Source: Mobula hypostoma (lineage: Eukaryota). From it: 64,000 nucleotides of DNA. Shown here in pieces: positions 10,422-64,000 of this stretch. The DNA lies in contig NC_086108.1 in the NCBI RefSeq assembly GCF_963921235.1, positions 62,064,001 to 62,128,000 of the forward strand, in the 5' to 3' direction. Each line of letters opens with the position of its first letter. Position 1 is the stretch's first letter. The notes under the pieces are model-generated. The model made no database searches. It saw nothing but the letters and a program-made list of their open reading frames with translations, and was not told the DNA's origin. The position numbers were made by a program, and so were the translations under genes.

Positions 10422-10457
10422 AGTCGACGTTTCAGGCCGAGACCCTTCATCAGGACT
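10422..10457 (-). ncRNA. Minimal type I hammerhead ribozyme motif in Penelope pLTR (sense to OMA1 intron)
   Basis: Minus strand AGUC CUGAUGA A GGGU CUCG GCCU GAA ACGU C/GACU: conserved core, stem I AGUC/GACU, stem II, palindromic ACGU, GUC cleavage triplet. Confidence 0.82.
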
Positions 10458-12924
10458 AACTGAAAGAAGAGCTAGTAAGAGATTTGAAAGTGGGAGGGGG
10501 AGGGGGAGATCCAAAATGATAGGAGAAAACAGGAGGGGGAGGAATGGAGCCAAGAGCTGGACAGATGATTGGCAAAAGGGATATGGGAGTATCATGGGAC
10601 AGGAGGCCCAGGGAGAAGGAAAAGAGGGAGGGGGGGGAAAAATCCAGAGGATGGGCAAGGGGTATAGTCAGAGGGACAGAGGGAGAAAAAGGAGAGTGAG
10701 AGAAAGAATGTGTGTATATAAATAACAGATGGGGTACGAGGGGGAGGTGGGGCATTAGCGGAAGTTAGAGAAGTCAATGTTCATGCCATCAGGTTGGAGG
10801 CTACCCAGACGGAATACAAGGTGTTGTTCCTCCAACCTGAATGTGGCTTCATCTTTACAGTAGAGGAGGCCGTGGATAGACATGTCAGAATGGGAATGGG
10901 ATGTGGAATTAAAATATGTGGCCACTGGGAGATCCTGCTTTCTCTGGCGACCAGAGCATAGGTGTTCAGCAAAACGATCTCCCAGTCTGCGTCGGGTCTT
11001 GCTAATATATAGAAGGCCACATCGGGAGCACCGGACGCAGTATATCACCCCAGCCAACTCACAGGTGAAGTGTCGCCTCACCTGGAAGGACTGTCTGGGG
11101 CCCTGAATGGTGGTAAGGGAGGAGTGTAAGGGCATGTGTAGCACTTGTTCTGCTTACAAAGATAAGTGCCAGGAGGGAGATCAGTGGGGAGGGATGGGGG
11201 AGACGAATGGACAAGGGAGTCGCGTAGGGAGCGATCCCTGCTGAAAGCCGGGGAGGGGGGGAAGGGAAAGATGTGCTTAGTGGTGGGATCCCGTTGGAGG
11301 TGGCGGAAGTTACGGAGAATAATATGTTCGACCCGGAGGCTGGTGGGGTGGTAGGTGAGGACCAGGGGAACCCTATTCCTAGCGGGGTGGTGGGAGGATG
11401 GAGTGAGAGCAGATGTGCATGAAATGGGGGAGATGCATTTGAGAGCAGAGTTGATGGTGGAGGAAGGGAAGCCCCTTTCTTTAAAAAAAAGGAGGACATC
11501 TCCCTCGTCCTGGAATGAAAAGCCTCATCCTGAGAGCAGATGCGGCGGAGATGGAGGAATTGCGAGAAGGGGATGGCATTTTTGCAAGAGACAGGGTGAG
11601 AAGAGGAATAGTCCAGATAGCTGCGAGAGTCTGTAGCCTTATAGTAGACATCAGTAGATAAGCTGTCTCCAGAGACAGAGACAGAAAGATCTAGAAAGGG
11701 GAGGGGGGTATCAGAAATGGACCAGGTAAACTTGAGGGCAGGGTGAAAGTTGGAGGCAAAGTTAATAAAGTCAATGAGCTCAGCAGGAAGCAGCGCCAAT
11801 GCAGTCGTCGATGCAGTGAAGGAAAAGTGGGGGACAGATACCAGAATGGGTTCAGAACATAGATTGTTATTGTTCCACAAAGCCAACAAAAAGGCAGGCA
11901 TAGCTAGGACCCATACGGGTGCCCATGGCTACACCTTTAGTTTGGAGGAAGTGGGAGGAGCCAAAGGAGAAATAATTAAGAGTAAGGACTAATTCCGCTA
12001 GACGGAGCAGAGTGGTGGTAGAGGGGAACTGATTAGGTCTGGAATCCAAAAAGAAGCGGAGAGCTTTGAGACCTTCCTGATGGGCAATGGAAGTATATAG
12101 GGACTGGACATCCATGGTGAAAATAAAGTGGTGGGGCAAGGGAACTTAAAATCATCGAAAAGTTTACATAGGTAGGAAGGGATTGAACAAGGGGGGATAA
12201 AACAGTGTCGAGGTATGCAGAAACGAGTTCGGTGGGGCAGGAGCAAGCTGAGACAATAGGTCAGCCAGGACAGGCTGGTTTGTGGATCTTGGGTAGAAGG
12301 TAGAAATGGGAAGTGCGAGGTGTGGGAACTATAAGGTTGATAGCAGTGGATGGGAGATCCCCTGAGCGGATAAAGTTGGTAATGGTGTGGGAGACAATGG
12401 CCTGGTGCTCCTTAGTGGGGTCACGATTGAGGGGTAAATAAGAGGAGGTATCCGCGAGCTGTTGCTGTGCCTCGGCAAGGTAGAGATCAGTGCGCCAGAC
12501 TACAACAGCACCCCCCCTATCGGCCGGTTTTATAGTAAGGTTAGGATTAGTGCAGAGGGAGTGGAGAGCAGAGCGTTCAGAAGGAGTGAGGTTGGAATGG
12601 GAACAAGGTGCGGTGAAGTCAAGACGGTCGATGTCCCGTCGGCAGTTCTCAATAAAGAGATCCAGGGCAGGCAGAAGACCAGTGCGGGGTGTTCATGAAG
12701 AGGAGGAGGGTTGAAGACAGGAGAAGGGGTCATCAGTGGGGGTGGAAGAGTCCTTGCCGAAGAAGTAGGCTCGGAGACGGCGGAAGAACAGTTCCGCGTC
12801 ATGGCGAATGCGGAACTCGCTGAGGTGTGGGCAAAGGGGGACAAAGGTGAGGCCCTTACTGAGGACAGAGTGTCCTGCCTCAGACAGCTGAAGGTCGGAG
12901 GGGATGGTAAAGACCCGGCACGGA

Positions 12925-13327
12925 TGAGAGCTGGGATCAGAGGGGGGAAGCTGGGGGTGTCAGTGGAGAGGGGAGGGTTGGGGTGAGAGGAAGATGGAGC
13001 CTCTGAGGGCCTAGGAGCTGACGGTGGGATCTGAGGAAGACGGGGTTGCAGAGTGGTGGTGGGGGAAGGGGAGACGGGAGTCACAACAGCAGCACATAAA
13101 GACCCGGCCTGGAGTTCAAGGTTCGAATCTTGAGAGCTGGGATCAGAGGCGGGAGGCTGGGGGTGTCAATGGAGAGGGGAGGGTTGGGGTGAGAGGAAGA
13201 TGGAGCCTCTGAGTACCCAGGAGCTGACGATGGGATCTGAAGGAGACGGGGTTGCGGAGTAGTGGTGGGGGAAGGGGAGACAGGAGTCACAACAGCAGCA
13301 CATAAAGACCCGGTCTGGAGTTCAAGG
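12925..13327. repeat. Two-copy ~197-bp tandem duplication inside the Penelope N-terminal region
   Basis: 12925-13121 and 13131-13327 are highly similar; the minus strand encodes a Pro/Ser-rich TPVSPSPTTT...SSSHPNPPLS..TPS.PPLIPAL unit twice. Confidence 0.9.
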
Positions 13328-14009
13328 CTAGAGTCGCAGTTGGTGGTTGCGCAATCGCTTTGAAGGTGTCCAAGGTCGTTGCTGGAGTCCGGGTTTTGAA
13401 TATGCCCTGAGGTGTTGCAGCCAGCGAGATCAATGGCAGAGGCTGCAATCTGAAGTTCATGCCTGCTAGCAACCGGGCCAGCAGGCTCTGGGGTCTGCAG
13501 ATGGAAGATCTTGCAATCCTTGCCTAACATGACAAAGTCAAAAAAATGGCGATCGCAGGCATGGATCCGACGGAAGATGAAATAACGGGTAGGACCATTA
13601 CAGACGGCGAAGAAAGTGTCCCGAAGGTGTGGGAGGGTCTGCGATAGGGACACCAAATACCTCCTCATGGCGGAGAGGGTCGTCTTCAGAGCTTGATGGG
13701 TCCGAAGGTGTGGAAGGGTCTGGGATAGGGACACCAACAACAGTCTATCTATGCAAATGAAGTTCTTCAACCATAAAATTAATCTAGCAAATTCTTCTAA
13801 AACCAACATACATCTTCTAATGTAAAGAGCTACCAATATGACACAACCTAATAAAATGCACAAGTAGATGTTGGCAGATCCAATGTTTTAACCTGATGTG
13901 GCCCAATAGAGCTTATTTCTTCCCATTTTGATCCATTTATCTCCCCATTCCAGTTCCTTAATCATTTACATCTGTGGCACCTCTGATGTTCTCTGCCTGT
14001 TGATGACTT

Positions 14010-15790
14010 ATAGTCCCAGACAGTTCATTTTCACAATGGGCAAACAATCCCTCAAAACCTCAATCCCAAACTAGGATGATCTGAGAACCTTTCATAATCT
14101 CCTTGAACAAAGACCCTACCAATCCTCTCCACCACCACCACCCTCCTCATTCACCTGAATACGCACCACCACCCTCCACCCTCACCTGAATCCCCTCCAC
14201 CCTCCTTCACCTGAATCCCCTCCACCACTACCCTCCTCCACCCAAATCCCCTCCACCCCTTCCTTCACCCGAATTCCCTCCACCCTCCTTCACCTGAATC
14301 CCCTCCACCCTCCTTCTTCACCTGAATCTCTTCCACTGCCTCCTCTCCACCACCCCCTCTTTTACCTTAATCCCCTCCACCACCCTCCTTCACCTGACTG
14401 AGCTCACTTTTGCATTAATATTTACTTCAACTCCACTCACTTCACCCAAATCAAAGTTGTTGCCATGGGAAACTATAATCATTCAAGACTTGAGCAGAGT
14501 TGTCTCTGCAGGATATCCATAACTTTTTTTTTAATTGATCCTATTCAGACCCCTTTCCTCAAATCTTCTTCCATTATATTGTGTATATTGTTGATGCTGT
14601 TTCTTAAACATGCACAGAACTGAAAACGTTCATTACTTCTGCTGCCAATTTTCATCCTGCTCTTACTTTGACATGGTCAGCATTTAACTCTTCCTTCCTC
14701 CTTGTCTTCTTCATCTCACAGGGTAGCCCAAAAATAATATCTATCAAAACCAACAAACTCCCACTGCTAAATTAACAATGATTCCTCTCAGTACTTTCTG
14801 TAAGAACCCCAGTCTCTCATCTCAGTTCAATCTACTCTGATGAGACTTTCCATACTACTGCTTTGATATGTCTTCTTTCCTGTCAGCTGTGACTTCCCTT
14901 TCACCATAGTTGTTAGTGCTCCTAACCATATCTATTTCCCACACTTCTGTTCTAATTTTCACCCACCCCAATAGGAACACAGATAGAGCTTCCTTAGTCC
15001 TCAATTTCCACCCACAATGAATCATTCTCTGTATTTTCCACCACTTTGAAGAATATTCCACCACTAAACATATTTTCCTCTCTTCTCGCCTTTCAGCATT
15101 TTGAAGTGGCTGTTCCTTCAATTCCCTGGCTCATTCTTACAATCCCACCTATGCTCCCCACTTTCCCATTCAACCACAGCAGACAACACCTGACTTCTGC
15201 CTCTTTCCTTCCACCCAGGGACCTGAAGAGTCCTTGTACGTGAAGTAGCAATTCACTTGGACTTCCAATTTTGTATATGGCAGTCAGTGCTCACAATGTG
15301 TATGTAGAAGGCAGACAGAAATTAGGTGACCACTAATCCAACCACCTCCATTCCATCCTCAGGGACAATTGTAAATTTCCAATCACTAACCACTTGAATT
15401 CTTCACCCCATCCCCACCTCCCTGTTTTTAGTTTCTTTGGAAAAGCACTTCGCTTTTGATCTGGGTATGTTTCATTCTTCATGGCTCAATGATGAATTTA
15501 ACAATTTTTGGTAAACAACCTGTTGTTCCTCTCTATGGATACAGTTGCACATTTTCATTTTAATTTGCTGCATTCTTCTTCCTCTTTGACTCGAATTGTC
15601 TATTTTTAAAACAATTACCTGGACAACTTGATCTTCACCTATCACAAGCATTCCCTTGGTTTACTTCACCCTTGTGACTTACTTTTTGAGTGCTGTCAAA
15701 TGGTCCTCAGCTTGAAAAATCAACTCCCTCTTCTTCCCCCTCGAATGCTGCCTGACCTGCTGAGCAATTCTAACATTTTCTGCTTTGGGT
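14010..15790 (+). mobile_element. Old, heavily decayed Penelope-like element
   Basis: Remnants of FTMD.QSL, Q.K.VAMG, ANFHPALT.TW, GIY-YIG region and pLTR tail in the expected order. Confidence 0.7.
14128..14397. repeat. C-rich minisatellite, ~25-bp unit CACCTGAATCCCCTCCACCCTCCTT, about 9-10 imperfect copies
   Basis: Direct reading of the tandem units. Confidence 0.85.
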
Positions 15791-16666: not shown

Positions 16667-16850
16667 AAACACAGAAAGAAACTGGAGGAATTCAGCAGGT
16701 CAAGCAGCATCTATGAAGGAAAATGGACAGTCGATGTTTCTGAAACCTCAGCTGTCTATTTCCCTCCATAGGTGCTGCCTAACCTGCTGAGGTCCTCCAG
16801 ATGCTTTGCGCGTTGCTCCAGATTTCTAGCATCTGCAGTTCCTTGTGTCT
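16667..16850. mobile_element. Fold-back Penelope pLTR mini-element inside a CR1 fragment
   Basis: CTGGAGGAATTCAGCAGGTCAAGCAGCATCTATG arm, followed by the inverted arm CATAGGTGCTGCCTAACCTGCTGAGGTCCTCCAG; ribozyme core deleted at the apex. Confidence 0.8.
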
Positions 16851-32390: not shown

Positions 32391-33190
32391 TTATGGATTT
32401 GGAGCTGGAACTTGATGAACTCCAGATCATTCGGAAGGCTGAGGGGGTGATAGATAGGACATATAGAGAGGTAGCTTCACTCAGGGTGCACGACGCAGAC
32501 AACTTAGGTGAAAGTCAGGAAGGGGAAAGGGTTGAAGGAGCCAGTACAGAGCACCCCCGTGGCCATCCCCCTCAACAACAGGTATGTCACTTTGGATACC
32601 ATTAGGGAGGATGACCTAATGGAGGGCAGTCGCAGTCTCTGGCACTGAGTCTGGCTCTATGACTCAGAAGGGAAGGGAGGAGAAGCATGCTGTGGTGGTC
32701 GGGGATTCCTTAGTTAGGGGAACAGGCAGAAAGTTCTGTGGGCGAGAACGAGATTCCCGAATGGTATGTTGCCTCCTGGGTACCAGGGTCCAGGATACCT
32801 CGACTCAAGTCTTCATTATTCTTAAGTGGGAGGGCGTACAGCCAGAATTCATGGTCCATGTAGGTACCAGTGACATGGGTAGGGTGAGTGACGAGGTTCT
32901 GCATAGGGAGTTCAGGGAGTTAGGTGCTAAGGTAAAGGGCAGGACCTCCAGGGTTGTGATCTCAGGATTACTACGCATGCCATGTGCTAGTGAGGCTAGA
33001 ACTAGGAAGATTATAAAGTTTATTGCATGGCTAAGGAGTTGGTGTGGAAGGGAAGGCATATCAAAACAGGGCATAAGGTTTTTGGATCATTGGAGGAGAT
33101 CTAATATCCTAGTGGGGAGGTTTGTTATACCGCACAGTGGAGGTTAAACTAGAGATGCGGGGGATGGGAACCAGAGTGCCAGAGCAGCAA
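32390..33190 (+). mobile_element. CR1 ORF1 (SGNH/GDSL esterase) fragment
   Basis: ORF 32659-33147: VVVGDSLVRG...MVCCL.G..V.D...VHVGTSD...VVISGLL..P. Confidence 0.88.
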
Positions 33191-36633: not shown

Positions 36634-36742
36634 TCAGTTAGGCCTGATGAAGGGTCCCAGCCCGAAACGTCGACTGTACCTCTTCCTATAGATGCTGCCT
36701 GGCCTGCTGCATTCCACCAGCATTTTGTGTGTGTGTTGGTTG
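36634..36742 (+). mobile_element. 109-bp Penelope pLTR insertion made of the hammerhead plus 3' tail
   Basis: CTGATGA AGGG..CCC GAAACGTC GACT at 36644-36675; 13-bp TSD AATAAG(G/A)TTAAGA at 36621-36633 and 36743-36755. Confidence 0.85.
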
Positions 36743-38188
36743 AATAAGATTAAGAGACTGTTTTAGTGAATATCTCAGCAGTTCACACCTGCAAGTTTCA
36801 CTGCCTTGTCAATTCAACAATCTCTCACCCTCTAGCAGTTGCACCTTTGACCTTTGAAAATATTTCTAAACAGGCACTACTCAAGCGTCAATGACAGTAC
36901 CTCATCTTCCTCCCTGATATCTTTAATGGTACCTCTGGTCTGAACTTTTAATGTTACGAACTTGAGGCTATTTTATATCCTGACACATCTATTACCATTA
37001 CTTGAATTGGAAATGTCAAACACCTGGAATGGGTCCAACATTTTATTTTAGAGCTGGGTTAGCTCCTTGGAAGTACAGTAAAACTTCAATTATCTGACAT
37101 GCTGGTGGTGCCACACAGATTTTCTGCAGTATTCGATATTGCTCCTATTAATACAGCTACACATTTAATTTGCTATTTTGTTTTGATGTTAGTTAATAAT
37201 TAGTAAAATGCTAGTATAATACATATAAAAGTGAATCAGATGAGTTCCCGGGGAGCATGGGAAGAGAACCCAGTGAGTCAGATGCCAAGCCATCAGGAAT
37301 TTTGAATAAGCAGGTTAGCAGTTTAACCGCTTCTGAATATCAGAAATAGTGAATTCGCTCATATTCGCTCTCCTGAACTTTCTGATCCTGAATGCATTCA
37401 GAATCTGATTCATCATCACTGATATATGTCGAGAAATTCGTTGTTTTGGGGCAGCAGTAGAGAGCAATACATAGAAATTTACTATCATTTACAAAGAAAA
37501 ATATACAAAAAGCGAAAAAAAAGCAAAATATTTTGGTTGGTTCATGAACCGTTCAGAAATATAATGGCCGAGGAGAAGAAACTGTCCCTAAAACGTTGAG
37601 TGTGCGTCTTCGGGTTCCTGTATCTCCTCCCCGATAGCAATAATAAGAGGGCATGTTCTGGGTGGGTGAGGGTCCCGTTTTACCATTTTCCTTGGAAGCC
37701 TCCAATATCTTCCATCCCGTGAGTTCTAATATCTCATACGGCAGTTTCCTGCTTTGCATTTGCACTGAAGAACATTTGGAAGACAATTAAATTTCCTCGG
37801 ACTGCCACCTCTATTATTGCTGTTTACTGTGCGCGTGAGGCACTATTTAGGGACTTCCTAACTTTTCAATGTTCCTTTCTGAAGAACAACCATCGTATTT
37901 CAAAAAACACTGTGGATCTGAACCACCCTAATGCATTCTGAGGTGCTGCGAAACTCTGTATAAACTCTCTCGGGGGGTGGGGGGGTGAGGGGTCATGTTA
38001 CTGAAAGGTTAAGGTGCCCTTGATGTCTCTGAACTTACAGCAGCTTGCCGAGGAAGTTTCATTTTGTAGCTCTGAGTCCAACTGCTAAACTGCTAGCTAC
38101 AAAATCAATCGCAACCACCGTTGTCGAACTGCGAGAGGATCAAATGCCATGAAACAAGCAACTGCTAGGCCCAGGCAATGTCATTTAC

Positions 38189-38656: not shown

Positions 38657-40100
38657 CCATAAGACGTAGGAGCAGAATTAGGTCATCTGGCCCATCTAAT
38701 CTGCTCCGCCATTCAATCACGGCGGATCTTTTTTTCTTCTCCTCCTCAACCCCAGTTCCCGGCCTTTTCCCGGTAACCTTTGATGCCATGTCAAATCAAG
38801 AACCTATCAATCTCTGCACGAGGACTCCCAAGTCCCTTTGAACCTCAGGTTTTTGGATTTTCTCCCCATTTAGAAAATAGTCCGCACACTTATTTCTACT
38901 ACCAAAGTGCATGACCATGCATTTTCCAACATTGTATTTCATTTGCCACTTCCTTGCACATTCTCTTGATCTAAGTCCTTCTGTATCCTGCCTGTTTCCT
39001 CAACACTACCTGCCCCTCCACCAATCTTTGTATCACCTGAAAACTTGGCAACAAAGCCATCTATTCCATCTTCTAAATCACTTATATACAGCGTAAAGAA
39101 GTGGTCCCAACACTGACCCCTGCGGAACACCACTAGTCACTGACAGCCAACCAGAAAAGGATCCTTTTATTCCCACTCACTGCCTCCTACCAATCAGCTA
39201 ATGCTCTAACCATGTTAGTAACTTTCCTGTAATACCATGGGCTCTTAACTTGGTAAGCAGCCTCATGTGTGGCACCTTGTCAAAGGCCTTCGGAAAGTAA
39301 AAAATATACAAAACCCACTGACTCCCCTTTATCTATCCTACTTGAAACCTCCTCAAAAAATTCCAACGGGTCCATGAGGCAGGATTTTCTCTGAAGGAAA
39401 CCATGCTGACTTTGTACTATCTCGTCCTGTGTCACCAAGTACTCCATCACCTCATCCTTAACAATTGACTCTAACATCTTCCCAACCACTGAAGTCAGGT
39501 TAACTGGTCTATAATTTCTTTTCTGCTGCCTTCCTCCTTTCTTAAAGAGTGGAGTGACATTTGCAATTTTCCAGTCCTCTGGCAACATGCCAGAATCCAA
39601 TGATTTTTGAAAGATCATTTCTAATGCCACCACAGTCTCGAACACTACCTCTTTCAGAACCCTAGGGTGCAGCTCATCTGGACCAGGTGACTTGTGTACC
39701 TTTAGGTCTTTCAGCTTTTTGAGCACCTTCTCTCTTGTAATAGTAACTGCACCCACTTCTCTTCCTTCACACACTACCACATCTGGCATACTGCTTGTGT
39801 CTTCCACAGTGATACAAAATACTCATTTAGTTCATCAGTCATCTCCTTGTCCCCCGTTATTATTTGTCCTGCCTCATTTCCTAGTGGTCCTGTATCCACT
39901 CATTTCTCTTTTATTTTTAACATACTTGTAAAAACTTTTACTATCCTCTTTGATATTGTTTGCTAGCTTGCTTTCATGTTTCATCTTTTCCTTTCTAATG
40001 ATTTTTATAGTTGCTCTCTGTAGGTTTTTAAAAACTTATTAATCCTCTATCTCCCATTAATTTTTACTTTGTTGTATGCCTTTATATGTCCTAATTTTTG
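38657..40100 (-). mobile_element. CR1 LINE directly upstream of the OMA1 promoter
   Basis: KSPGPDELHPRVLKE, DWKIANVTPLFKKG, NYRPVNLTSVVGK, KFSGDTKIGG; CR1 3' tail. Confidence 0.92.
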
Positions 40101-40394: not shown

Positions 40395-41585
40395 GAGAGA
40401 GAGGGAAAGAGAGAGAGAGAGAGAACTTTATTGTCGTCGCTGACAAATTACTCCATTCAGTACAAAGCATCATAGTTGCAATTCAATGACTAAAAACAAA
40501 ATAACTACATTTAAAATAATGTTTTGGATTATTTAGAATGACAACTAAATTACAAATGAATTAAAAACAATTAAAATTAAAAGAAACAGTGGCTGTCCCT
40601 TCAAGTGCTGCATTTGCCTGTTATAAAATACAATGATTAAATATAAAATAGCATTGAGAATTAAAGCTGAGGTTTTAAAAAAAAGCTCTGAAATCAAAGG
40701 AAGGCAGCTGCCTCATTTAAACCCAAATATTGCACATACCATGTATTGCACGTAGATTACCCATAGTGCCTATGGACTATGGGTGGGCGTGGTGACATCA
40801 CTCACAATACGCTGGAGGAACTCAGCAGGTTGAGCAGAATCCGTGGAAATGATCAGTCAACATTTTGGGCCAGAACCCTTCGTCAGGACCGTAGAGGGAA
40901 GGGGCAGAGGCCCTATAAAGAAGGTGGGGGGAAGGTGGGAAGGAGAAGGCTGGTAGGTTCCAGGTGAAAAACCAGTAAGGGAAAAGACAAAGGCGGGGGG
41001 GGAGGGAAAGCAGGGAGGGGATAGGTAGGAAAGGTGAAGAAGGAATAGTGTAGTAGAAGGAGGCGGAACCATGAGGGAGGTAGTAGGCAGCTGGGGGGGG
41101 GCAGAGTGAAATAGGGATAGGGGAAGGGAGGGGGAGGTAATTACTGGAAGTTGGAGAAATCAATGTTCATACAAGGGGCGTGGTGATATTGTTCAGTTGC
41201 ACAACAGCCCTCAGGGAAGAAGGCTGTTTTTCACTCTGGATGGCTGCGCAGAGACGTTTGTGTAGATTGAACAGTTGATTACTGGACTGGGATGAATCTA
41301 TCACGATGTTGTGAGCCTGCCATAAATAGCGTGAGTTGTAGATGGTTTCCGTACCTGGTAGTTGTGTCTCAATGGTGTTCTGTGCAGTCCTGATCACTTG
41401 TTGACTACACAGAACATCACTGGGACACAACTACCAAATATGGAAAGCACCTACAAATCATGCTGTCTATGGTGGGGTTGTAACATTGTGATGGACTCAT
41501 CCCACCCCAGCAAGCAGCTGTTCAATCTCCTACTACCCAGCAGGAGATACAGAAACATCTCTGTACAGACATCCAGACTGAAAAA
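40395..41585 (-). mobile_element. Rex1-like LINE 3' part with an adjacent inverted related fragment; interrupted by Penelope
   Basis: Minus VIRTAQNTIETQLP..IY..R; plus-strand mirror at 41406-41585 (QNITGTQLP...SHPS..LF.LLLPSRRYR); (TC)n tail near 40400. Confidence 0.7.
40799..41175 (-). mobile_element. Penelope 3'UTR/pLTR fragment
   Basis: IDFSNF* end, degenerate hammerhead at ~40855-40890; 14-bp TSD GGGCGTGGTGA(C/T)AT at 40785-40798 and 41176-41189. Confidence 0.85.
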
Positions 41586-41594
41586 AAAGAATTG

Positions 41595-42780
41595 AAGGCA
41601 AGCTGGTAGATACGATATATATGGACTTTAACAAAGCTTTTGACAAGGTACTGCATGATAGGCTGGTTCAGAGAGTTCAAGCATATGGAATCCAAAGTGT
41701 TTTGGCAAACTGGATCCAAACTTGGCTTGTTGATAGAAGAAAGAGAGTAGTGGTGGAGGAATTTTTTTTGACTACAGAGATCAGTCTTGGGACCTTTGCT
41801 GTTTCTCATTTGTTTTAATGATTCGAATAAGAATGTGATATGAAATGGAGTTGTAGATTGCAAGGGTGGTTGCTAAATGATGGGGGAGGGGGAGGAAATC
41901 ATAGATCATCTGGAAAATTGAGCCAAACACAGTGGACAGAATTTAATCAACAGAAGAGTAATGCATTGAGTCATCTAATATTGGTTGGATGTACACAATA
42001 ACTGTCAGGCCTCCATACGTGCTGCCTGGCCTGCTGAGTTCCTCCAGCATTTTGTGGGGGTTACAGTGAAGCAGGAGTTAAGTTTGCTTGCCTTTGTTGG
42101 TAGGGATTTTGAGAATAAAAGTTGACACAAATTGCACCTACATAAGACAGTTTAGCCAACAACACACATAAAAGTTGCTGGTGAACGCAGCAGGCCAGGC
42201 AGCATCTATAGGAAGAGGTGCAGTCGACGTTTCAGGCCGAGACCCTTCGTCAGGACTAACTGAAGGAAGAGTGAGTAAGGGATTTGAAAGTTGGAGGGGG
42301 AGGGGGAGATCCAAAATGATAGGAGAAGACAGGAGGGGGAGGGATGGAGCCAAGAGCTGGACAGGTGATAGGCAAAAGGGATACGAGAGGATCATGGGAC
42401 AGGAGGTCCGGGAAGAAAGACAAGGGGCGGGGGACCCAGAGGATGGGCAAGGGGTATATTAGAGGGACAGAGGGAGAAAAAGGAGAGTGAGAGAAAGAAT
42501 GTGTGTATAAAAATAAGTAACAGATGGGGTACGAGGGGGAGGTGGGGCACCAGCGGAAGTTAGAGAACTCCAGTTTAGGCAACACTTGGATTATAGTGTG
42601 CAGTTCTGATCACCACACTAAAGGTAGGATGAGGTGGTGCTAGAGAGAGTGCAGAGGAGATTCATTGGGATGTTGCTGGGAATAGAGGGTGTTAGTTATA
42701 ATAAATGTTTGGACAGGTAGCAATTGTTCTCGCTATAACTTGGGAGGCTGAGGGGTTATAAAGTTCTGAGGGACATGATG
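41595..42780 (+). mobile_element. CR1 fragment interrupted by Penelope
   Basis: MDFNKAFDKVLHDRL; later L.Y.VQF.SPH..KD...LERVQRRF. Confidence 0.8.
42162..42570 (-). mobile_element. Young Penelope 3'UTR/pLTR copy with intact hammerhead (42222-42257)
   Basis: Nearly identical to 10361-10770; TSD CAGTTTAG(C/G)CAACA at 42148-42161 and 42571-42584. Confidence 0.9.
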
Positions 42781-43130: not shown

Positions 43131-44132
43131 AATATGAGAAATTCCGCAGATGCTGGAAATCCAGAGCAACAAACACAAAATGCCAGAGGAACGCAGCAGG
43201 TCAGGCAGCATCCATGGAAATGAAATTGACATTTCAGGCCAAGATCCTTATTCAAAACTGGAAAGGAAGGCGAAAATACCAGAATAAGAAGGTGGGGAGG
43301 GGAAGGAGGATTAGCTAGAAGGTGACAGGTGAAACCAGGTGGGTAAGAAAGGTAAAAAGCTGGAGAGGAAGAAATCCAATAGGAGATGAGAGTGGACCAG
43401 AGAAGAAAGGGAAGGAGGGGAGAAGAGGTAAGGGGCCAGAGTGTTGAACAGAAAAGAGGGAAGGGGAGAGAAAATTTGTTTGCTCGGGGAAATAATAGTC
43501 ATGCCATCAGGTTGGAGGCTACCCAGACGGAATATACTGTGTTGCTCCTCCACCCTGAGAGTTGCCTCTTCATGGCTCAAGAGGCGGCCATGGACCGATA
43601 TGTAGGAATAGGAATGAGAAACAGAATTAACATGTTTGTCACCAGGAAATTTTGCATTTGTCGGACGGAGCAGAGGTGCTCGATGAAACAGTCCCCTAGT
43701 TTACCATAGATCTCACTCATGTAGAGGCTATATCAGGAGCACCAGACACAATAGATGACCCCAGCAGATTTGCTGGTGAAGTGCTGCCTCACCTGGAAGG
43801 AATGTTCAGGGGCCTGAATGGAGGTACTGGAGGAGGTGAATGGGCTGGGCTAATACTTTGGTCACTTGCAGGGATGTGCCAGGAGGGAGATTAGTGGGGA
43901 GGGATGAATAGGCAAGGGAATCAGGGAGGGAGCGATCCCTGCATAAAGTGGAGAGAGGGGGATGTAACAATATGTTTGGTGGTAGGATTCCTTTGAAGTT
44001 GGCATTTTATGGAGAATGATGTGTTGGTTGCGGCTGCAGGGATAAGTGCTGGGAGAGAGAATAGCAGAGATGGACAAATGGGCAAGGGAATCACTTGCAG
44101 GGTTAAGTACTGGGAGAGATTAGTAGGAACCC
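43131..44132 (-). mobile_element. Penelope 3' fragment (older subfamily)
   Basis: EATLRVEEQH.IFRLGSLQPDGM; TSD AATTCACT at 43123-43130 and 44133-44140. Confidence 0.85.
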
Positions 44133-44733: not shown

Positions 44734-45240
44734 GCACAAGATACTCTGCAGACACTCGAAGTTTGAGCAACATATACAAAATGCTGGAGGAATTCAGTGA
44801 GTCAGGCAACATCTATGGAGGAAAACAGTCCAGACTAGAAAGGAAGGGGGCAGAAGATAGAATAAGAAGGTGAGGGGAGGGGGAGGAGCACAAGCTGGTT
44901 GATGTCAGGTGATATCAGGGATCAGGAAAATGGGTGGCTGGGAGAAAGGGGATGATGTAAGAAGCTGGGAAGTGATAGGTAGAAGAGATACATAAACAGC
45001 TGAAGAAGGAGGCATCTAATAGGAGAGGACAGTGGAATAAAGGGGAGGTGAGGCACTGGAGGGAAATGGTAGCCCCCCCCCTCACCTTTCAAAGGGTATT
45101 CTTCCCCTCCCCAACCTTATTCTGCCTTCTGCCACTTCCTTTCTAGTCCAGATGAAGATTCTCATCCCAAAATGTCCACTGTTCATTTCCTTCTATTGAT
45201 ACTGAGCTTCTGATTACCTCCAGCATTTTGTGTACGTTGT
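44734..45240. mobile_element. Fold-back Penelope element (pLTR + inverted pLTR)
   Basis: Opposed pLTR arms; imperfect 14-bp TSD CCA(G/A)TGCAA(T/G)ATTG at 44720-44733 and 45241-45254. Confidence 0.78.
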
Positions 45241-46393
45241 CCAATGCAAGATTGTTTGACCATAATGCAGTGAAATTGGACTACTGCACCAAATGATACC
45301 AAAAATATACCTTTTGAATTTAGTTAGCAAGTAGGACTAATAGAAGAGGAAAAGGCAAAATGTACTCCTATACAGTATGCAGAATAAGTTTTCTGTGTAA
45401 GTGTAAAGCTGCAAAGGCAATTATACCCAATTTTATAAAAGCAAGAGTGCCTCGCTCCAGAGGCATTCTGTAAAAAATACAAATCCTCTCTTCTACTAAA
45501 TGCCAAGTTCAGGCTCATGACTTTTCAGGTGCTGTTTATTCCTCTTTCATTCCTCCAGTCTTTCTTTAGCTTTGATACTGTACAACATGTTTTCTTATTT
45601 AATTACAAGAAAGCAAGGGGATTGATTACAAAGAATACGAGAATACAAAGAATCCTTCGGCAATTTGTGATAAAGACGCATGGTGTGCAAAGTTGCTGCA
45701 TAACTTCCACTGGTCCGCCACTGGTTACTGAAAACATCATCTTGCACCAACTTAACTACTGGGTTTCATCTGATTTGGTAGTTACATATTAACTGGTTAT
45801 TAAGTTCACTATAGGAGGATGTTAGGGAATTAATAAACAAGTACTGTACACTTTCAATGTAGTGATATTTGTAATTACTAATTAACTTCTTCTAACTCAG
45901 AAATAAATAATTCAAATATGGAGTCTTGCTTTCCTTTACTGAAAAAAGTCAGCTTTTGCTCTACCTGATTTAACATGGAGCTCATCCGTTGCCTTTCTCT
46001 TCCCATGTTTATTTTTCAATTCTTATCTTTAACGAGTTAAGAAATCTTCCATTATTCACGAAGATCCCAGTTGTCATTGTGAGTTCACAATTCTACTATC
46101 TCAAAACATTTTTTTAGATAAAATTTCAACAACAATTCAAGATTTTGCGAAGTCCTGGTGCAGCAAATTTTTAGCGCAGCATGTTTCGCTAAAGATTAAT
46201 TATATTAAGAAAACTTAATTTAAACAGTTTAACAATTATCAAACATTTTTAAAAATCCCGCATTTTGTTTTTATTGATACAAATATTCATATCAGGGATA
46301 ATACTGTATATACAGACAACAAACTTTGCTTATTGAATACTCACAATGCACTGGAGGAACTCAGCAGGTCAGTCAGCATCAGTTGAAAAGATT

Positions 46394-46429
46394 AGTCGAC
46401 GTTTCGGGCCGAAACCCTTCGTCAGGACG
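46394..46429 (-). ncRNA. Hammerhead ribozyme motif
   Basis: GUC CUGACGA A GGGU UUCG GCCC GAA ACGU C/GAC; UUCG-capped stem II. Confidence 0.82.
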
Positions 46430-47901
46430 GAAGGAGGAACTTTGGGGAGGGTTTGAAGAATGCTGGTAGTCGAAAAAAACAGTAATTTTAAAGACAAAGT
46501 GGTGGGGGAGGGGAAGCGGGGAGGTGATTGGCAGGAGAACAATGCGAAGTAGTAGAAGGAGGCGGAACTATGAGGGAGGTGATGTGAAAAAGGGATAGAG
46601 GAAAGGGGGGGGGGTGGGAATTACTGGAAGTTGGAGAATTCTATGTTCACACCAAGGGGCTGGAGACTACCTAGACAGTATATGAGGTGTTGCTCCTCCA
46701 ACCTGAGTTGAGCCTCATCATGGCAGTAGAGGAGGCCATGTATGGACATATCTGAATGGGAATGGGAAGCAGAGTTGAAGTGGGTGGCAACCGAGAGATC
46801 CTGTCTGTTGTGGCGGATGGAGGAGAGGGGAGGTGCTCGACGAAGCGGTCCCCCAATCTGTGTCGGGTTTCACTGATGTAGAGGAGGCCACACCGGGAGC
46901 ACCGGATGCAATAGATGACCCCAACAGATTTGCAAGTGAATTGTTGCCTCACCTGGAAGGACTGTTTGGAGCCCTGAATGGTGACAAGAGAGGAGGTGTA
47001 GGGACAGGTGTAGCACTTACGCTTACAGGGATGTGCCGGCTGGGAGATCTGTGGGGATGGACTTGCGGATAAGTGAGTTGCGGAGGGATCGATCCCTGCG
47101 GAAAGCAGAGAGGGGTGGAGAGGGAAAGATGTGCTTAGTGGTGGGGCCCTGTTGAAGGTGGTGAAAGTTGCGGAGGATAACGTGCTGGATCCGGAGGCTG
47201 GTGGGGTGGTAGGTGAGGACAAGGGGAACTCTGTCCCTGTTGTGGTGGCGGGAAGATGGGGTGAGGGCTGAAGTGCGGGAAATGGAGGAGATGCGGGTGA
47301 GGGCATCATTGATCACCGTAGAAGGGAAACCACGATCCTTAAAGAAAGAGGACACTTGAGATGTCCTGGAACGGAAAGCCTCATCCTGGGAGCAGATGCG
47401 GTGGAGATGGAGAAACTGGGAACAGGGAATGGCATTTTTGCATGTGGTGGGGTGGGAAGAGGTATAGTCGAGGTAGTTATGAGAGTCAGTGGGCTTGTAG
47501 AAGATGTCAGTGGACAGTCTGTCTCCAGAGATGGAGACTGAGACATCGAGAAAGGGGAGAGAAGTGTCAGAGATAGACCAATTGAATTTGAGGGCTGGGT
47601 GGAAGTTTGAAGTAAAGTCGATGAAATTGACGAGCTCAGCATGGGTGCAGGAAGCAGCACCAATGTATCGAAGGGAAAGTTGGGGAGCAGTACCAGAATA
47701 GGTTTGGAGCACAGACTGTTCCACATAACCAACGAAGAGGCAGGCGTAGCTGGGTCCCATGTGAGTTCCCATAGCTACACCCTTAGTCTGAAGAAAGTGG
47801 GAAGAGCCACCCTGCTTCCCCTCCCCCACCCCTTTGTCTTTAAAATTACTGTTTTTTTCAACTACCAGCATTCTTCAAACCCTCCACAAAGTTCTTCCTT
47901 C

Positions 47902-47937
47902 AGTCCTGATGAAGGGTTTCGGCCCGAAACGTCGACT
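47902..47937 (+). ncRNA. Hammerhead ribozyme motif
   Basis: AGUC CUGAUGA A GGGU UUCG GCCC GAA ACGU C/GACU; predicted cut after C47933. Confidence 0.85.
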
Positions 47938-49109
47938 AATCTTTTCAATTGATGCTGACTGACCTGCTGAGTTCCTCCAGCACATTGTGAGTGTTCCTTT
48001 GACAACAGCATCTGCAGATTATTTCGTGTTAAACTTTGCTTATTGGCAGTAAGTGTAGCTTGATACAATACATAAACCAAACAGGTAGAAAACAGCATTC
48101 CTGTACAAAATTGATTTATTAATACTGTAGTTTAAACATTTTAACTCTTCAATTCTTTAATTACAACATGAAACTGCAACAAGCAAGATTACACAACCTT
48201 TCCTAAGTCAAAGAGCAGTGCACAAATATGATCACATATGCTGTATATACTTTTGATTTCAACCTCACAAATGGTCAAATATTTTAACTATGAAAAATAC
48301 AGACATTGTTCTAGAAAAATATGTACAGTATGCTACCATGCAGTAATATTGTCAATACATTTATTGTACTTTGATTTTAACTAAATCTATACATTGCAAC
48401 TTATGAGAAACTGAAAGGTAAGAGACATAGACGAATGCAGAGTATCCATGAACCATGTATCATATAATTTGAAGCACGGGAATAAACAATAAGTTGTAGC
48501 TGATGGTCCAACTTGATTTACCATCACCTATTTTCAGAGCAACTCTCTGAAATTATTGCCTTGAGTTAAAAGAAAATCAGTTCAAGATGTCTCAAAACTT
48601 TGGGATCTTTCAACCTGCATTGGCTCAAGCTATGACCAAATACCTTCCAAGTAGCTCACTTAATGTCATCTGCAAAGGTACTGAAATACTAATTCCTTGT
48701 TTTATTAATTGTTATATCTTTATACGTCCCATTTCTTAATTTACTCTTGGAGAATAAGAGTACATAATTCTCATGAAGGCACCAAGAACCTGGGACTGTG
48801 CCAGAGTGGTTTTGAGCATTGTTAAACATCAGTAAGCTATTTAAAATTGTTGAATTATCCTATAGTAGTATTTTGGGTTATCTCAGATTTATAATTTAAA
48901 TATGCCTCAATTTAAATATGCAGCATATACAAAACGGTTCAAAGAGATCAGAAGAACTAGGAATTTTAAGAATTTAACATAAGTTTCTGAAGTTAAACGA
49001 CAAGAGCAAACCTTGAATTGCTCATGTAGTTTTTGATCTGTGAGATCATGCTGCATTATGCAAAACAATCACAAAAATATGAAGGTATTTTTATTGTTTA
49101 TTCAAAAGA

Positions 49110-51983: not shown

Positions 51984-52176
51984 TATCAACACAAGTGAAT
52001 CTGTAAATGCTGGACGTCCAGGGTGACACATACAGAAGGGCAGCATCTATGGAAAGAATAAACAGTCGATGTTTCAAGTCCTGATGAAGGGTCCAGGCCG
52101 GAAATGTTGAATATTTATTGTTTTTCATAGATTCTGCCTGGCCTGCTGTTCCTCCAGTATTTTGTTTGTGTTACTG
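51984..52176. mobile_element. Fold-back pLTR mini-element downstream of the MYSM1 stop
   Basis: Opposed arms around CTGATGAAGGG..GAAA (52081-52104); perfect 10-bp TSD TTAAACTCTT at 51974-51983 and 52177-52186. Confidence 0.82.
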
Positions 52177-55902: not shown

Positions 55903-56110
55903 GCACAAACATGAGGAAATCTGCAGATGCTGGAAATTCAAGCCACACACACAAAAAATGCTGGTGAACGCAGCAGACCAGGCAGCGTCTATAGGAAGAG
56001 GTACAGTCGACGTTTCAGGTCCTGATGAAGGGTCTCGGCCCGAAACGTCGACTGTACCGTTTCCTATAAATGCTGTCTGGTCTGCTGTGTTCACCAGCAT
56101 TTTCTGTGTG
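55903..56110. mobile_element. 208-bp fold-back pLTR mini-element with intact hammerhead (56018-56053, +)
   Basis: Arms ~55948-56017 and ~56041-56110 are inverted copies; 14-bp TSD ATTAACTC(A/T)CTGGA at 55889-55902 and 56111-56124. Confidence 0.9.
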
Positions 56111-56160
56111 ATTAACTCTCTGGATATACTTATTCAGACAACAACCACATTATACATATA

Positions 56161-57861
56161 TATTCGCAAGAAAAAGTTTGTGAACCTTTTGCAGTTAACT
56201 GGTTTACTGCATTAACGTGGTCTGATCTTTATCTAAGTCAGAATTATATACAAACATAATCTGCCTAAACTAATAACACACACACATACACACACACAAT
56301 TGCACTTCTTCTCATCAATACTAAGTACACCATTTAAATAATCACAATCTAGGTTCAAAAAGGACGTGAATCTCTGGGGTAATGCCTTCTACAAAAGCTA
56401 TTCGGAGTTAGATGTTTCAATCAATGAGATGAGATCGGAGGTGTGGATTGTAGAGGTGCCCCCGCCCTATAAAAAATACACAATGCCAAGTTACTGACAG
56501 AGCCTGCTCTTCTCAAGAAAGATCCATTTATGTACACAATGCCTCAATCAAAACAACTTTCAGAAGACCTTAGAAGGAGAATTACAGAGATGCATGAAGC
56601 TGGAAAAAGCTGCAAAAGCATTTTTAAAGACTTGAGCAACACACACAAAATGCTGGAGGAAGTCAGCAAGCCAGACAGCATCTATGGAAAAAAGTAGTTA
56701 ATGTTTCCACCTGAAACCCTTCGGCACTGTAAGAGAAATTGTCTACAAATGGAGGAAATTCAGTACTGTTGCTACTTTCCCTAGGAGTGGGTGTCCTGCA
56801 AAGATCACATCAAGAGCACACCATACAATGGTGAAGGAGGAGAAAAAGGACACAAGGGTGACAGTAAAAGACCAGCAGAAATCTCTAGAACTTGCTAAAG
56901 TCTCTGTTCATGTGTCCACTACCAAAAAAATACTGAACAAGAATGGTGTTCATGGAAGGGCAGCACGGAGGAAACCACTGCTCTCCAAAAAAAAAATATT
57001 GTTCCATATCTCAAGTTTGCAAAAGACTGCAGTATTTGGGTGTTCCACAATGCTTCTGGGACAGTGTTTTGTGAACAGATGAGACAAAAGTTGAACTTTT
57101 TGGCAGAACTGCACACCACAATGCTTGAAAGAAAATGGGCACTGCACACCAACACTAAAAGCTCATCCTTACTGTAAAGTACGTTGGAAGGAGAATCATC
57201 GGGTTGGGGCTGCTTTGTTGCCTCAGAGGCTGAACAGTTTGCAATCGTTGAGGGAACACAGAATTCCAAATTGAATCAAGACATTTTACAGGAGAAAATC
57301 AGGATAGCAGTCCGTCACCTGAAGCTTAATAGAAATTGCATAATGTAGCAAGACAATAATCCGAAAGACAAGAATAAACCAACAACAGAATGGTTTAAAA
57401 AGAAGAAAATTTGTATATTGGAATGGCTGAGTCAGAGTCCAGACCTTAATGCAATTGAGATGCTATGGCATGAACTGAAGACGGTTGTTCAAGCAAGATG
57501 TCCCAGAAATACAGATGAACTGAAACTTTTGTATGAAGGAATAGTCTAAAATTCTTCTTCGCCGTTGTGCAGGTCTGATCAGCAACTACAGGAAAGGTTT
57601 GGTGGAGGTTATTGCTGCTAAAGGAGGCTCTACCAATTATTAAATACAAGGGTTCACATACTTTTTCCAGCCTGGACTGTGAATGACGAAACAATATGTT
57701 CAATAAAGACATGAAAAGTACAATTGTTTGTGTCTTAGTAGTTTAGGCAGATTGTGTTTGTCTATTATTGTGACTTAGATGAAAATCAGACCACATTTTA
57801 TGAGTAATTAATGCAGAAAACCAGGTAATTGCAAAGGTTCACAAACTTGTTCTTGCAACTG
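56161..57861 (+). mobile_element. Full-length decayed Tc1 (DD34E, IR/DR type) transposon
   Basis: ~200-bp TIRs (GCAAGAAAAAGTTTGTGAACC / GGTTCACAAACTTGTTCTTGCAACTG). Transposase from ATG 56539 (MPQSKQLSEDLRRRI) to TAA 57643 with ARRKPLL, DETK, QDN, W.SQSPDLN.IE; frameshifts; pLTR fragment inserted at ~56633-56726. Confidence 0.93.
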
Positions 57862-57887
57862 GATATAAAGATGTATTTTCACATGCA

Positions 57888-58564: not shown

Positions 58565-59374
58565 TATATAGAGAGAGATCTCCATCAAGATACCAAATTG
58601 AACATAGGATGTTCCAGTTCTATAAAGTCACAGTTCAGTGAAAACAGTATTACATATAAAAAAAGACAAGTGACTGGAAGAACCTACTGGACCAATCAGC
58701 ATTTGTGGAGGCAAGAAGATGGTCATAGTTTCAGGTTGAGACCCTGCACCAGTCCTGAGAAAGGGTTTTATCCCAAAGTGTTCATCATTGCTACCTCTAC
58801 AGTTGCTGCTTGATCAGCTGAATTTTTCCAACCGTTTGTTTTTCATACGCAATACTTTTACTGCAATAGAAGGTTAATAAATCAGCAACGATGGAATGGC
58901 AGAGCTGACTCAATGGGCCAAGTGGCCTAACTTTCTTCGAAGTTTTATGGTCTTATAGTTTATTTTTTGCTTCAGATTTGACAATTCGCAGTCTCTTGCA
59001 ATACACAAAGAGATGGAGGAACTCAGCAGGTCAGGCAGCATCTATGGACGAAACTAGAGTTGACATTTTGGGCTGAGACTCCTCATCCACACATCTGCAG
59101 TCTCTTGTTCCACATACAGCATATACATATAGTTAAGACATTTTCAGTTCTATTACCATAATATCATATACTTTCTCATTTATTATTTACTGCACATATC
59201 AAGCAACATAAAAGCACTGTCAGAGAAGTAAACAGTGCTCTTTTTCTGATGGTGTAATATACTGTATGTAGAAATAATTCATATTCTGCTACATCACAGC
59301 TAGAAATTGAAAGGCTGCAGTTGCTTCAAATCTAGAATAATAAGAATATGGGGGGAAAATATCCTTAAGTAACA

Positions 59375-60545
59375 CTAATAAAATGCTGGAGGAACCTCAG
59401 CAGGTCAGGCAGCATCTATGGAACTGAAAAAAACAGGCAGAAACATGTCATCAGGTCAGAAAGGAAGAGGGAAAATGCCAGAATAATAAGGTGGGGGGAG
59501 GGAAAAGGGGTGATAGATGAAGACAGGTGGGTGGGGAGGGGGAATGAAGTAAGAAGCTGGGAGGTGATGGGGGAAAAGGGCAAAGGAAAGGAGGAGGGGC
59601 ACCAGGTGAGATGATAAACATGTGAGGAGAAGAGATAAGCGACCACATTGGGGAAATGAGGAAGCGGGAAGGAGGAGGAGAAAAAAAAATAGCAGAAGTT
59701 GGAGAAATCGATGCTCATGTCATCAGGTTGGAGGCTACCTAGACGGAATATAAGGCCAACCCGAGAGTGGCCTCAGCATGGCAGAACAGGAGGCCATGGA
59801 CCGACATGTCAGAATGGGAATAGGGATAGAAAGTGAAATGGTTGGCCACCAGGAAATTCCTCTTTTTGTGGATGGAGCTGAAGTGCTTGCCAAAGCAGTC
59901 CCCCAATGTATGTCATATCTCACCAAGTAGAGGAGGCTGCATCGGGAGCACCAGACGTAGTAAATGACCCCAGCAGATTCGCAGGTGAATTGTTGCCTCA
60001 CCAGAAGGATCGCTTGGACCACTGAACAGAGGTGAGGGAGGAGGTGAATGGACAGATGTAGCACTTCTGCTGCTTGCAGGGATCAGTGCCAGGAGAGAGA
60101 TTGGTGGGGAGGGATGGATGGACAAGGGAATCATAGAGGGAGTAATCCCTGCAGAAAGCAGAAAGTGGGGGTATGGAAAGATGTGTTTGGTATTCAGGTC
60201 CCGTTAAAAATGGCGGAAGATGCAGAAGCTCATGGGGTGGTAGGTGAGGACAAGAGGAACTGTTAAGGCAGTGGGAATGAGGTGAATGTGAATGAGGGCA
60301 GCATTGATAGTGGAGGAAGAGAAACCTTGTTCTTTGAAGGAGGAGGATATCTCTGATGCCCTGGAAAGGAAGCCTTCATCCTGGGAACAAATGTGGCAGA
60401 GACAAAGGAACTGATAAGAGGGATCAGCATTTTTACAGGAGACAAGGCGGGAAGAGGTATAGTCAATATACAGTAGCCGTAAGAATCAGTGGGTTTATAA
60501 CAGATATCAGTAGACAGCTTGTCTCCAGTGATGGAAATGGAAAGT
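59375..60545 (-). mobile_element. Penelope 3' fragment
   Basis: VRQQFTCESAGVIYYVWCSRCSLLY, MSIDFSNF, pLTR. Confidence 0.85.
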
Positions 60546-62444: not shown

Positions 62445-62860
62445 TCAAAAGTCAAAGTGAAATTTATTATCAAAGAATGTATATGTTAACATATACCACA
62501 ATGAGATTCATTTTCTTGCAGGCATTGACAGAAAAATAAAAAATACAATAGAATTTACAAAAAAATATACATAATCAAAGACTAACAAACAATTGATGTG
62601 CAAAAGAAGACAAGTTGTACAAACAAAAAATAATAGTAAGAACATGGATTGTAAAGAGTCCTTGGAAGTAAGTCTGTAGGTTGTAGTATCAGTTCAGAGA
62701 TGTGCTAAGTGAAGTTATCCATGCAGAACCTACGTGAACCTATAAGAAAGTAGAGGTACTGTCGTGCCTTCTTTATGATGGCACTTACATACTGGTCCTA
62801 GGACAGATCCTACGATATGATAATGCAAAGAATTTAAAGCTACTGACCCTCTCCATCATA
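62445..62860 (-). mobile_element. Rex1-like LINE 3' end
   Basis: Minus-strand AATAAA + (TTTGAC)-type tail; upstream RT C-terminal remnant. Confidence 0.6.
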
Positions 62861-62928
62861 TTTACCATAAATATTGTCCAAGCTACAGTGTACTAGCATT
62901 ATGACCCAAAACAGATCCTACATCCATT

Positions 62929-64000
62929 CAACAGGAATTCTGCAGATGCTGGAAATTCAAGCAACACACATCAAAGTTGCTGGTGAACGCAGCAGGCCAG
63001 GCAGCATCAGTAGGAAGAGGTACAGTCGATGTTTCAGGCCGAGACCCTTCGTCAGGACTAACTGAAGGAAGAGTGAGTAAGGGATTTGAAAGTTGGAGGG
63101 GGAGGGGGAGATCCAAAATGATAGGAGAAGACAGGAGGGGGAGGGATAGAGCCAAGAGCTGGACAGGTGATAGGCAAAAGGGGATACGAGAGGATCATGG
63201 GATAGGAGGTCCGGGAAGAAAGACAAGGGGGGGGGGACCCAGAGGTTGGGCAAGAGGTATATTCAGAGGGACAGAGGGAGAAAAAGGAGAGTGAGAGAAA
63301 GAATGGGTGCATAAAAATAAGTAACAGATGGGGTACGAGGGGGAGGTGGGGCCTTAGCGGAAGTTAGAGAAGTCGATGTTCATGCCATCAGGTTGGAGGC
63401 TACCCAGACAGAATATAAGGTGTTGTTCCTCCAACCTGAGTGTGGCTTCATCTTTACAGTAGAGGAGGCCGTGGATAGACATGTCAGAATGGGAATGGGA
63501 TGTGGAATTAAAATGTGTGGCCACTGGGAGATCCTGCTTTCTCTGGCGGACAGAGTGTAGATGTTCAGCAAAGCGGTCTCCCAGTCTGCGTCGGGTCTCG
63601 CCAATATATAAAAGGCCTCATCGGGAGCACCGGACGCAGTATATCACCCCAGTCGACTCACAGGTCAAGGGTTGCCTCACCTGGAAGGCCTGTTTGGGGC
63701 CGTGAATGGTGGTAAGGGAGGAAGTGTAAGGGCATGTGTAGCACTTGTTCCGCTTACACGGATAAGTGCCAGGAGGGAGATCAGTGGGGAGGGATGGGGG
63801 GGACGAATGGACAAGGGAGTTGCATAGGGAGCGATCCCTGCGGAATGCAGAGAGAGGGGGGGAGGGAAAGATGTGCTTAGTGGTGGGATCCCATTGGAGG
63901 TGGCGGAAGTTACGGAGAATAATATGTTGGACCCGGAGGCTGGTGGGGTGGTAGGTGAGGACCAGGGGAACCCTATTCCTAGTGGGGTGGCAGGAGGATG
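62929..64000 (-). mobile_element. Young Penelope element running off the right edge (inside a MYSM1 intron)
   Basis: Highly similar to 10361-11400; GIY-YIG LLYIGETRRRLGDRFAEH; hammerhead at 63024-63059 with ACGU changed to ACAU. Confidence 0.92.

Follow-up and report, generated by a model that had tools for sequence, protein, structure and literature searches.

A minimal type I hammerhead motif in the repeats of a young, probably Neptune-type Penelope-like element of Mobula hypostoma

A stretch of 64,000 nucleotides from Mobula hypostoma (NCBI RefSeq assembly GCF_963921235.1, contig NC_086108.1, positions 62,064,001 to 62,128,000 of the forward strand; hereafter, the window) holds fragments of a Penelope-like element (PLE) family, which cover 10,437 of the 64,000 bases, and a short RNA motif, every copy of which terminates a fragment of this single retroelement family. 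We consider it very probable that the motif is a minimal type I hammerhead, situated in the pseudo-long terminal repeat (pLTR) of a young, amplified Neptune-type PLE and multiplied via reverse transcription that likely started in the tail downstream of it. Motifs of this kind have been known since 2014, when minimal hammerhead ribozymes (min-HHRs) were described in the pLTRs of metazoan PLEs, including Xena, Poseidon, and Neptune of fish (Cervera and De la Pena, PMC4209133). Our literature search retrieved no paper on a hammerhead ribozyme in an elasmobranch retrotransposon, with the reservation that supplements may list related fish motifs.

Positions within the motif are given as offsets, C3 of the CUGANGA box being 0; the 5' strand of stem I then occupies -4 to -1, its 3' strand +28 to +31, and cleavage is predicted between +27 and +28. 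The seven near-intact copies listed in a sequence-only reading of the window are all present, with positions and strands as given there (Table 1), each of the nine sites listed as decayed aligns to a real copy with a score of 63-116 (shuffled sequence reached 43.5 at most), a further fold-back relic is situated at 16675-16742, and C47933, named as the cleavage base, is the H17 base of the copy at 47902..47937 (+). A structural descriptor, combining the core boxes with paired stems I and II, is passed by six of the seven near-intact copies, where the boxes CUGANGA, GAAA, and UH are closed by stem I, and by no other site in the window; 30 dinucleotide shuffles of the window gave a mean of 0.03 matches and a maximum of one. 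An Rfam cmscan of the window at E<=1 returned five matches with no hammerhead family among them, and all five were rejected as chance matches or fold-back relics. The tail relic at 16701-16781 gives spurious microRNA-like Rfam matches below the gathering score; such PLE fold-back relics could be mis-annotated as microRNA hairpins. The copies in the window are not tandem: no direct tandem pair of motifs, i.e., tandem monomers each with a hammerhead, as required of a retrozyme, was found there.

The longest copy in the window, at 10360..13737 (-), matches amino acids (aa) 92-1016 of the intact open reading frame (ORF) described below and comprises reverse transcriptase (RT), Cys linker, GIY-YIG, 3' untranslated region (UTR), hammerhead, and a short tail; a ~200-bp internal duplication lies in its proline/serine-rich N-terminal region (12956-13701, minus strand). 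The motif at 36640 sits in a solo mini-insertion (36634-36745) with an imperfect target duplication. The young copy running off the window continues for ~2.5 kb into L018 (L-numbers denote fetched loci or sequences), terminating with an inverted 5' arm that bears a hammerhead of its own.

Table 1. Copies of the hammerhead motif and of its carrier element in the window.
Feature	Coordinates	Strand	Basis
Minimal hammerhead motif, young subfamily, U11.1, 3' pLTR of the long copy	10422..10457	-	descriptor and alignment
Young Neptune-type PLE copy (putative class), 5'-truncated, broken; longest in window	10360..13737	-	~90% DNA identity to L107 unit
Hammerhead motif with stem I mismatch (fails descriptor)	36640..36675	+	alignment
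Intact hammerhead motif in 411-bp truncated young copy (42160-42570)	42222..42257	-	descriptor
Subfamily B hammerhead motif, 3' end of long arm of head-to-head insertion	46394..46429	-	descriptor, subfamily grouping
Subfamily B hammerhead motif, inverted short arm; predicted cut after C47933	47902..47937	+	descriptor
Whole head-to-head PLE insertion, 15-bp target-site duplication (46321-46335 / 48031-48045)	46321..48045	.	sequence
Hammerhead motif from offset -3, joined to inverted copy (55906-56019); fold-back mini-insertion	56018..56053	+	sequence
Hammerhead motif, ACGU palindrome broken (G16.2 to A), long tail; 3' end of young copy	63024..63059	-	descriptor
Young PLE copy running off the window, 96% to L107 unit	62929..64000	-	alignment
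Decayed pLTR end, tail kept, core rearranged; closes older copy (3046-4383)	4296..4372	+	alignment
Decayed motif, A6C subfamily; closes older copy (6857-7916)	6945..6980	-	alignment
Fold-back relic of two truncated tails, start near offset +18	16675..16781	.	alignment
Decayed motif, subfamily E	40855..40890	-	alignment, subfamily grouping
Decayed motif closing older copy (43137-44110)	43224..43259	-	alignment
Strongly decayed motif	45145..45180	+	alignment
Decayed motif from offset -4, inverted tail in front	52077..52112	+	alignment
Decayed motif with C at position 6	56695..56726	-	alignment
Strongly decayed motif	58721..58756	-	alignment
Decayed motif downstream of old copy (59690-60544)	59058..59087	-	alignment

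The earlier claim that the motif is of the minimal type I hammerhead kind and belongs to a PLE's 3' repeat is supported. The M. hypostoma genome (G000, 3.48 Gb) has 389 read-through copies, which run on from the tail into the element interior, and 20 of them, fetched at 10 kb, served to define the unit. The full unit of ~3,514 bp consists of the motif, the tail, an ORF starting with ATG at +166 and extending to +3214, a 300-nt 3' UTR, and the next motif at ~+3514; in 10 of the 20 loci, both pLTRs carry the motif, at 0 and at about +3501 to +3706. Stop-free frames of 1041-1043 codons are found in four loci (L093, L101, L105, and L107), the one in L093 holding compensating frameshifts. The L101 protein (1016 aa) matches RVT_1 at 507-669 and, at its C-terminus, GIY-YIG at 919-993, both below the curated Pfam cut-offs, and contains a Cx4CxxC linker; only this intact ORF matched Pfam, the PLE fragments of the window giving no matches. 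A CX2-5CxxC linker between RT and endonuclease (EN) has been described as a mark of Neptune and Nematis (PMC8557442). Judging by the linker motif, which occurs in Nematis as well, and by the domain order, the element appears to be a Neptune-type EN-encoding (EN+) PLE. Similarly to Neptune-clade EN+ PLEs (Craig et al., 2021, PMC8557442), it has a single ORF with RT, linker, and C-terminal GIY-YIG, and the partial tandems, the inverted 5'-truncated arm, and the optional tail (30-40 bp in that clade) are all seen in the family.

The 3' ends of the copies fall in two steps, from +83 to +103 and from +122 to +128 (the reference limit), in 100 out of 100 anchored copies. This agrees with the two-step 3' tail downstream of the hammerhead in Poseidon_Ac of the anole, and with the two internal RT start sites of that element (Frangieh et al., 2024, PMC11167929). 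The ORF of Poseidon_Ac starts inside stem II (PMC11167929), whereas here the first in-frame ATG with the conserved N-terminus is the one at +166, past the tail. Reverse transcription would likely start in the tail 60-100 nt downstream of the motif, and a tail-started RT would copy the motif into nearly every insertion, even a short one; nearly every fragment carries the motif presumably because RT initiates internally in the tail.

The motif shares with the previously described min-HHRs the type I topology, the 4-bp stem I, the unpaired base between 9 and 10.1, the palindromic 15.2-16.2 without loop 3, the presence in both flanking repeats, and the genome-wide prevalence of solo copies or opposite-strand pairs (PMC4209133). 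It differs in stem II, 4 bp with a G-U pair against 7-8 bp in the Schistosoma motifs, and, unlike the motifs described there, its dominant master has U11.1 (PMC4209133). The copy number differs as well. The sequence-only reading had held the genome to be densely seeded with the motif, and indeed exact matches number 45,197 for the 35-nt ribozyme pattern and 76,625 for the 35-nt tail pattern, with none for the reversed-pattern controls of either; hence, there are at least 45,197 motifs, at least fivefold above the descriptor counts of ~4,000 in coelacanth and ~9,000 in Xenopus (PMC4209133).

Conservation was assessed at tail anchors in 161 fetched sequences (1.24 Mb), 260 out of 364 anchors having a recognisable ribozyme region and the other 104 being dropped, a filter that favours recognisable motifs. 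Six subfamily groups were distinguished (171, 15, 10, 4, 3, and 2 copies). The mean majority identity among them is 1.00 for the 5' strand of stem I, 0.85 for the rest of the motif, and 0.83 for the tail, compared to 0.54 for the upstream flank and 0.59 for the spacer; in contigs of four public runs, similarity ends exactly at -4 and +32. The possibility, raised earlier as one that would speak against the ribozyme, that the core is no more conserved than the flanking pLTR is thus not borne out for the adjoining flanks (0.85-1.00 vs. 0.54-0.59), with the caveats that several groups are small and that the tail is equally conserved, and the stronger conservation of the motif between subfamilies suggests that it was under selection in master elements. 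Five of the six subfamilies keep A6, other catalytic positions are invariant, and C11.1 is found in four of six subfamily majorities. The unpaired A between 9 and 10.1, present in 180 out of 181 young copies (those with at most three substitutions) and in all six majorities, had been proposed as a signature of the family; however, a conserved nucleotide at this place is listed for all metazoan min-HHRs and hence is general to them (PMC4209133).

Variation among the copies, contrary to what had been claimed, is not confined mostly to tolerated positions, as essential positions have changed about as often as N7. In the 181 young copies, we observed N7 to U in 14 copies, G8 to A in six, G12 to A in five, C15.2 to U in eight, G16.2 to A in 14, C17 to U in 10, and G1.1 to A in 13, while a control CpG in the tail has changed in 26. 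The changes cluster at CpG sites irrespective of function, which fits neutral decay. The ACGU palindrome retains C15.2 in 173 and G16.2 in 167 of these copies. U11.1, found in 142 of them, is a master-level state replacing the G10.1-C11.1 pair, which has been described as highly conserved (PMC4209133). In the predicted monomer fold of six of the seven near-intact window copies, G5-A6-N7-G8 would pair with C15.2-G16.2-U16.1-C17 to form an inactive long hairpin.

The presence of tens of thousands of copies with an intact core might suggest that the dispersed copies are active self-cleaving cassettes affecting host transcripts. We regard this as highly improbable, since the copies decay at CpG whatever the function of the site, are truncated relics, form no direct tandem pair in the window, and as monomers are predicted to misfold, while a published min-HHR monomer showed no cleavage (PMC4209133) and insertions read through the cut site, as detailed below. 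The dispersed copies likely are inert relics, mostly dead fragments, that decay neutrally.

The insertion record allows the predicted cut to be considered directly. Among 100 tail-anchored copies (four 5' ends being counted twice via duplicated tails), 92 continue beyond +25 on the upstream side and two start at +28; no read-through copy out of 81 starts at +28, and of the 63 extending as far as +48, 61 pass the cut site. Since insertions read through this site, linear cut RNA is a rare template at most, and the RNA templates of the element are likely not cut at the ribozyme site. Uncleaved RNA apparently is the dominant template, as in Poseidon_Ac (PMC11167929).

Several observations weigh against the interpretation given at the outset. 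The tail (0.83) is about as conserved as the ribozyme (0.85), and therefore conservation alone does not single out catalysis. No compensatory pair changes were found among the six subfamily majorities, the stems being invariant, and thus the fold rests on invariance and likeness to published motifs. Apparent genome-wide junctions, defined by three mismatching flank bases, show an excess at +28 (498, compared to 77 at +27, 186 at +29, and 161 at +30), and pLTRs are more alike within an insertion (0.005) than between insertions (0.014; n=6). Finally, read-through copies are also expected from cleaved and re-ligated circular RNA. According to the model of PMC4209133, tandem hammerheads cut as a dimer, the unit RNA is ligated, and rolling RT yields partial tandems; the motif in both pLTRs, their likeness within an insertion, and the +28 excess all agree with such a cycle.

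The +28 excess, though, largely dissolves on dissection. The 52 loci dissected at +28 comprise 34 inversions, many via GAC/GACT microhomology, nine direct or indel junctions, and ~6 true flank joints, compared to ~6 out of 30 at +29 and ~7 out of 30 at +30; scaled, and with three, five, and one rows, respectively, that a script had classed as flank moved by eye to element-derived beforehand, this gives ~57 true flank joints at +28 vs. ~37 and ~38. The raw excess was accordingly rejected as a cleavage footprint, being mostly inversion and indel junctions, and an excess of at most about twofold may persist. At four inversion junctions (L121, L144, L158, and L159), the 26 nt that separate the GAC repeats at +2..+4 and +28..+30, i.e., the core and stem II, are missing from the forward arm. 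Given also that no read-through copy starts at +28 and that hammerhead mutants of the anole element did not affect insertion in vitro (PMC11167929), we consider the cleave-and-circularise cycle unlikely here.

Instead of the cut site, 5' ends gather at the outer edge of the motif. Out of 91 copies reaching +13, 33 stop between +13 and -9. Genome-wide junctions number 61 at -11, 462 at -8, 291 at -6, 2019 at -4, 1693 at -3, 732 at -2, and 289 at +3; these counts carry no correction for differences in flank probability and in anchors, but such differences cannot explain a 30-fold range. Of 30 loci ending at -4, 20 join an inverted copy, one a direct copy, and nine a flank, four having a target duplication found by script; differing upstream subfamilies inflate the -4 count slightly (clearly so in one of the 30). 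An RNA start would fit the local sequence: a context resembling the initiator consensus, YYANWY, surrounds the A at -4 and, weakly, the one at -8. An internal promoter is known in Drosophila Penelope (PMC2377424). The pile-up at -4/-3 likely marks either the RNA start at the first base of the motif or release of the complementary DNA (cDNA) after the hairpin from -4 to +31 has been copied. A splice acceptor as its source was rejected, as -6 (291) and -2 (732) lie below -4/-3 and no shared upstream exon is seen in the 30 loci. In L226, L228, L230, L246, and L251, the -4 end is preceded by a few additional bases similar to offsets +2..+6, a pattern such as would arise if RT had reached the end of its template and then primed anew inside the motif. 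The literature search, supplements not being covered, found no report of a 5'-end pile-up at a PLE hammerhead.

This pile-up suggests another explanation, namely, that the motif now serves mainly for structure or as a promoter (as the 5' end of the RNA, an RT stop, or a template-switch hairpin), catalysis being vestigial in the lineage. The predicted misfolding of the monomer, U11.1 in the dominant young master, and the spread of an older subfamily with C at position 6 are in line with it. This subfamily has 2,840 genome matches to a pattern allowing only transitions; when 20 such loci were checked (L253-L272), three proved point mutants of the young family and 17 did not, most of the latter sharing distinctive flanks and six having endonuclease sequence upstream. 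In the window, C6 is carried by the copies at 6945 and 56700 (56695-56726). In another hammerhead, rates in Mg2+ fell by orders of magnitude upon this substitution (PMC7151607), and a natural A6C hammerhead known from phage has low Mg2+ activity and prefers Mn2+ (PMC3088659, PMC7151607); no report of A6C in PLEs was found in the literature search, which did not cover supplements. On the other hand, A6C hammerheads still cleave with Mn2+ (PMC7151607), and the retention of A6 by the other five subfamilies, together with the invariance of the remaining catalytic positions, argues against this explanation. Moreover, only 10 out of 60 read-through copies stop at -9..+13, while 50 run past -9, so that full-length templates mostly start further upstream and a start of all of them at -4 was rejected. 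A mainly structural role thus seems rather doubtful to us.

Short tandem units have also formed repeatedly in this family. In 16 of the 81 read-through copies, the 5' region (mostly +198..+304) is joined to the 3' repeat, in 11 of the 16 at -4..-23. Retrozyme-like mini-tandems of ~290-420 bp units, mostly with different junctions, occur at L091, L092, L096, L098, and others, e.g., a 310-bp array of 4.1 copies with 99% identity at L091:4474-5736. Such short one-hammerhead tandem units are like the PLE-pLTR-derived non-LTR retrozymes (bioRxiv 10.64898/2026.07.22.740005); unlike the latter, the window copies are not tandem and the 16 mini-units mostly differ in junctions, and hence they look like independent by-products rather than one amplified family. 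Folding of two adjacent mini-tandem units predicts a long cross-paired hairpin, nested folding being unable to represent the dimer fold. At L016:9480 (+) there is another minimal hammerhead, distinct in that its stem II is longer and its flanks are unrelated; it possibly belongs to another PLE family.

Returning to the ribozyme of a young, tail-primed PLE as the preferred interpretation, by analogy with other PLEs the motif would act in master tandem transcripts as a weak, dimer- or protein-assisted ribozyme; the hammerhead of the anole element cut only with protein (PMC11167929). In the tandem RNAs of masters, catalysis probably is weak and conditional, and in the dispersed copies it is probably negligible.

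The window contains other mobile-element remnants. A divergent PLE remnant at 14417-15508 (+), with 37-61% aa identity to the young ORF, is adjoined by a purine-rich repeat at ~14120-14420 (-). An RT fragment of a long interspersed nuclear element (LINE) at 1797-3336 (+; RVT_1, E 4e-26) runs into the older PLE fragment at 3046, and LINE-like ORF fragments were recognised by eye in translations, with no Pfam match, at 6031-6737 (+), 32620-33147 (+), and 39280-39822 (-). A Tc1/Tc3-type transposase fragment at 56702-57082 (+; HTH_Tnp_Tc3_2, E 1.5e-7) adjoins a decayed hammerhead on the opposite strand.

The function of hammerheads in EN+ PLEs has been called still unclear (PMC8557442), and the value of this family lies in scale, as its intact motifs, more than 45,000 in number, lend statistical power to work on this question. 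The insertion record speaks against cut RNA as the usual template and maps a sharp boundary at the first base of the motif, and the A6C subfamily offers natural material for a bench comparison. It is conceivable, if at present improbable, that the hammerhead here is less a cutter than an RNA 5' boundary and template-switch hairpin, acting as a transcription start site or in cDNA release. If so, this role would set the size of thousands of mini-insertions and give rise to retrozyme-like tandems, and masters whose cores are weakened (A6C, U11.1) could still reach copy numbers in the thousands or tens of thousands. The family would then bear on the question of the PLE hammerhead role, its A6 and C6 subfamilies being a natural comparison within one genome.

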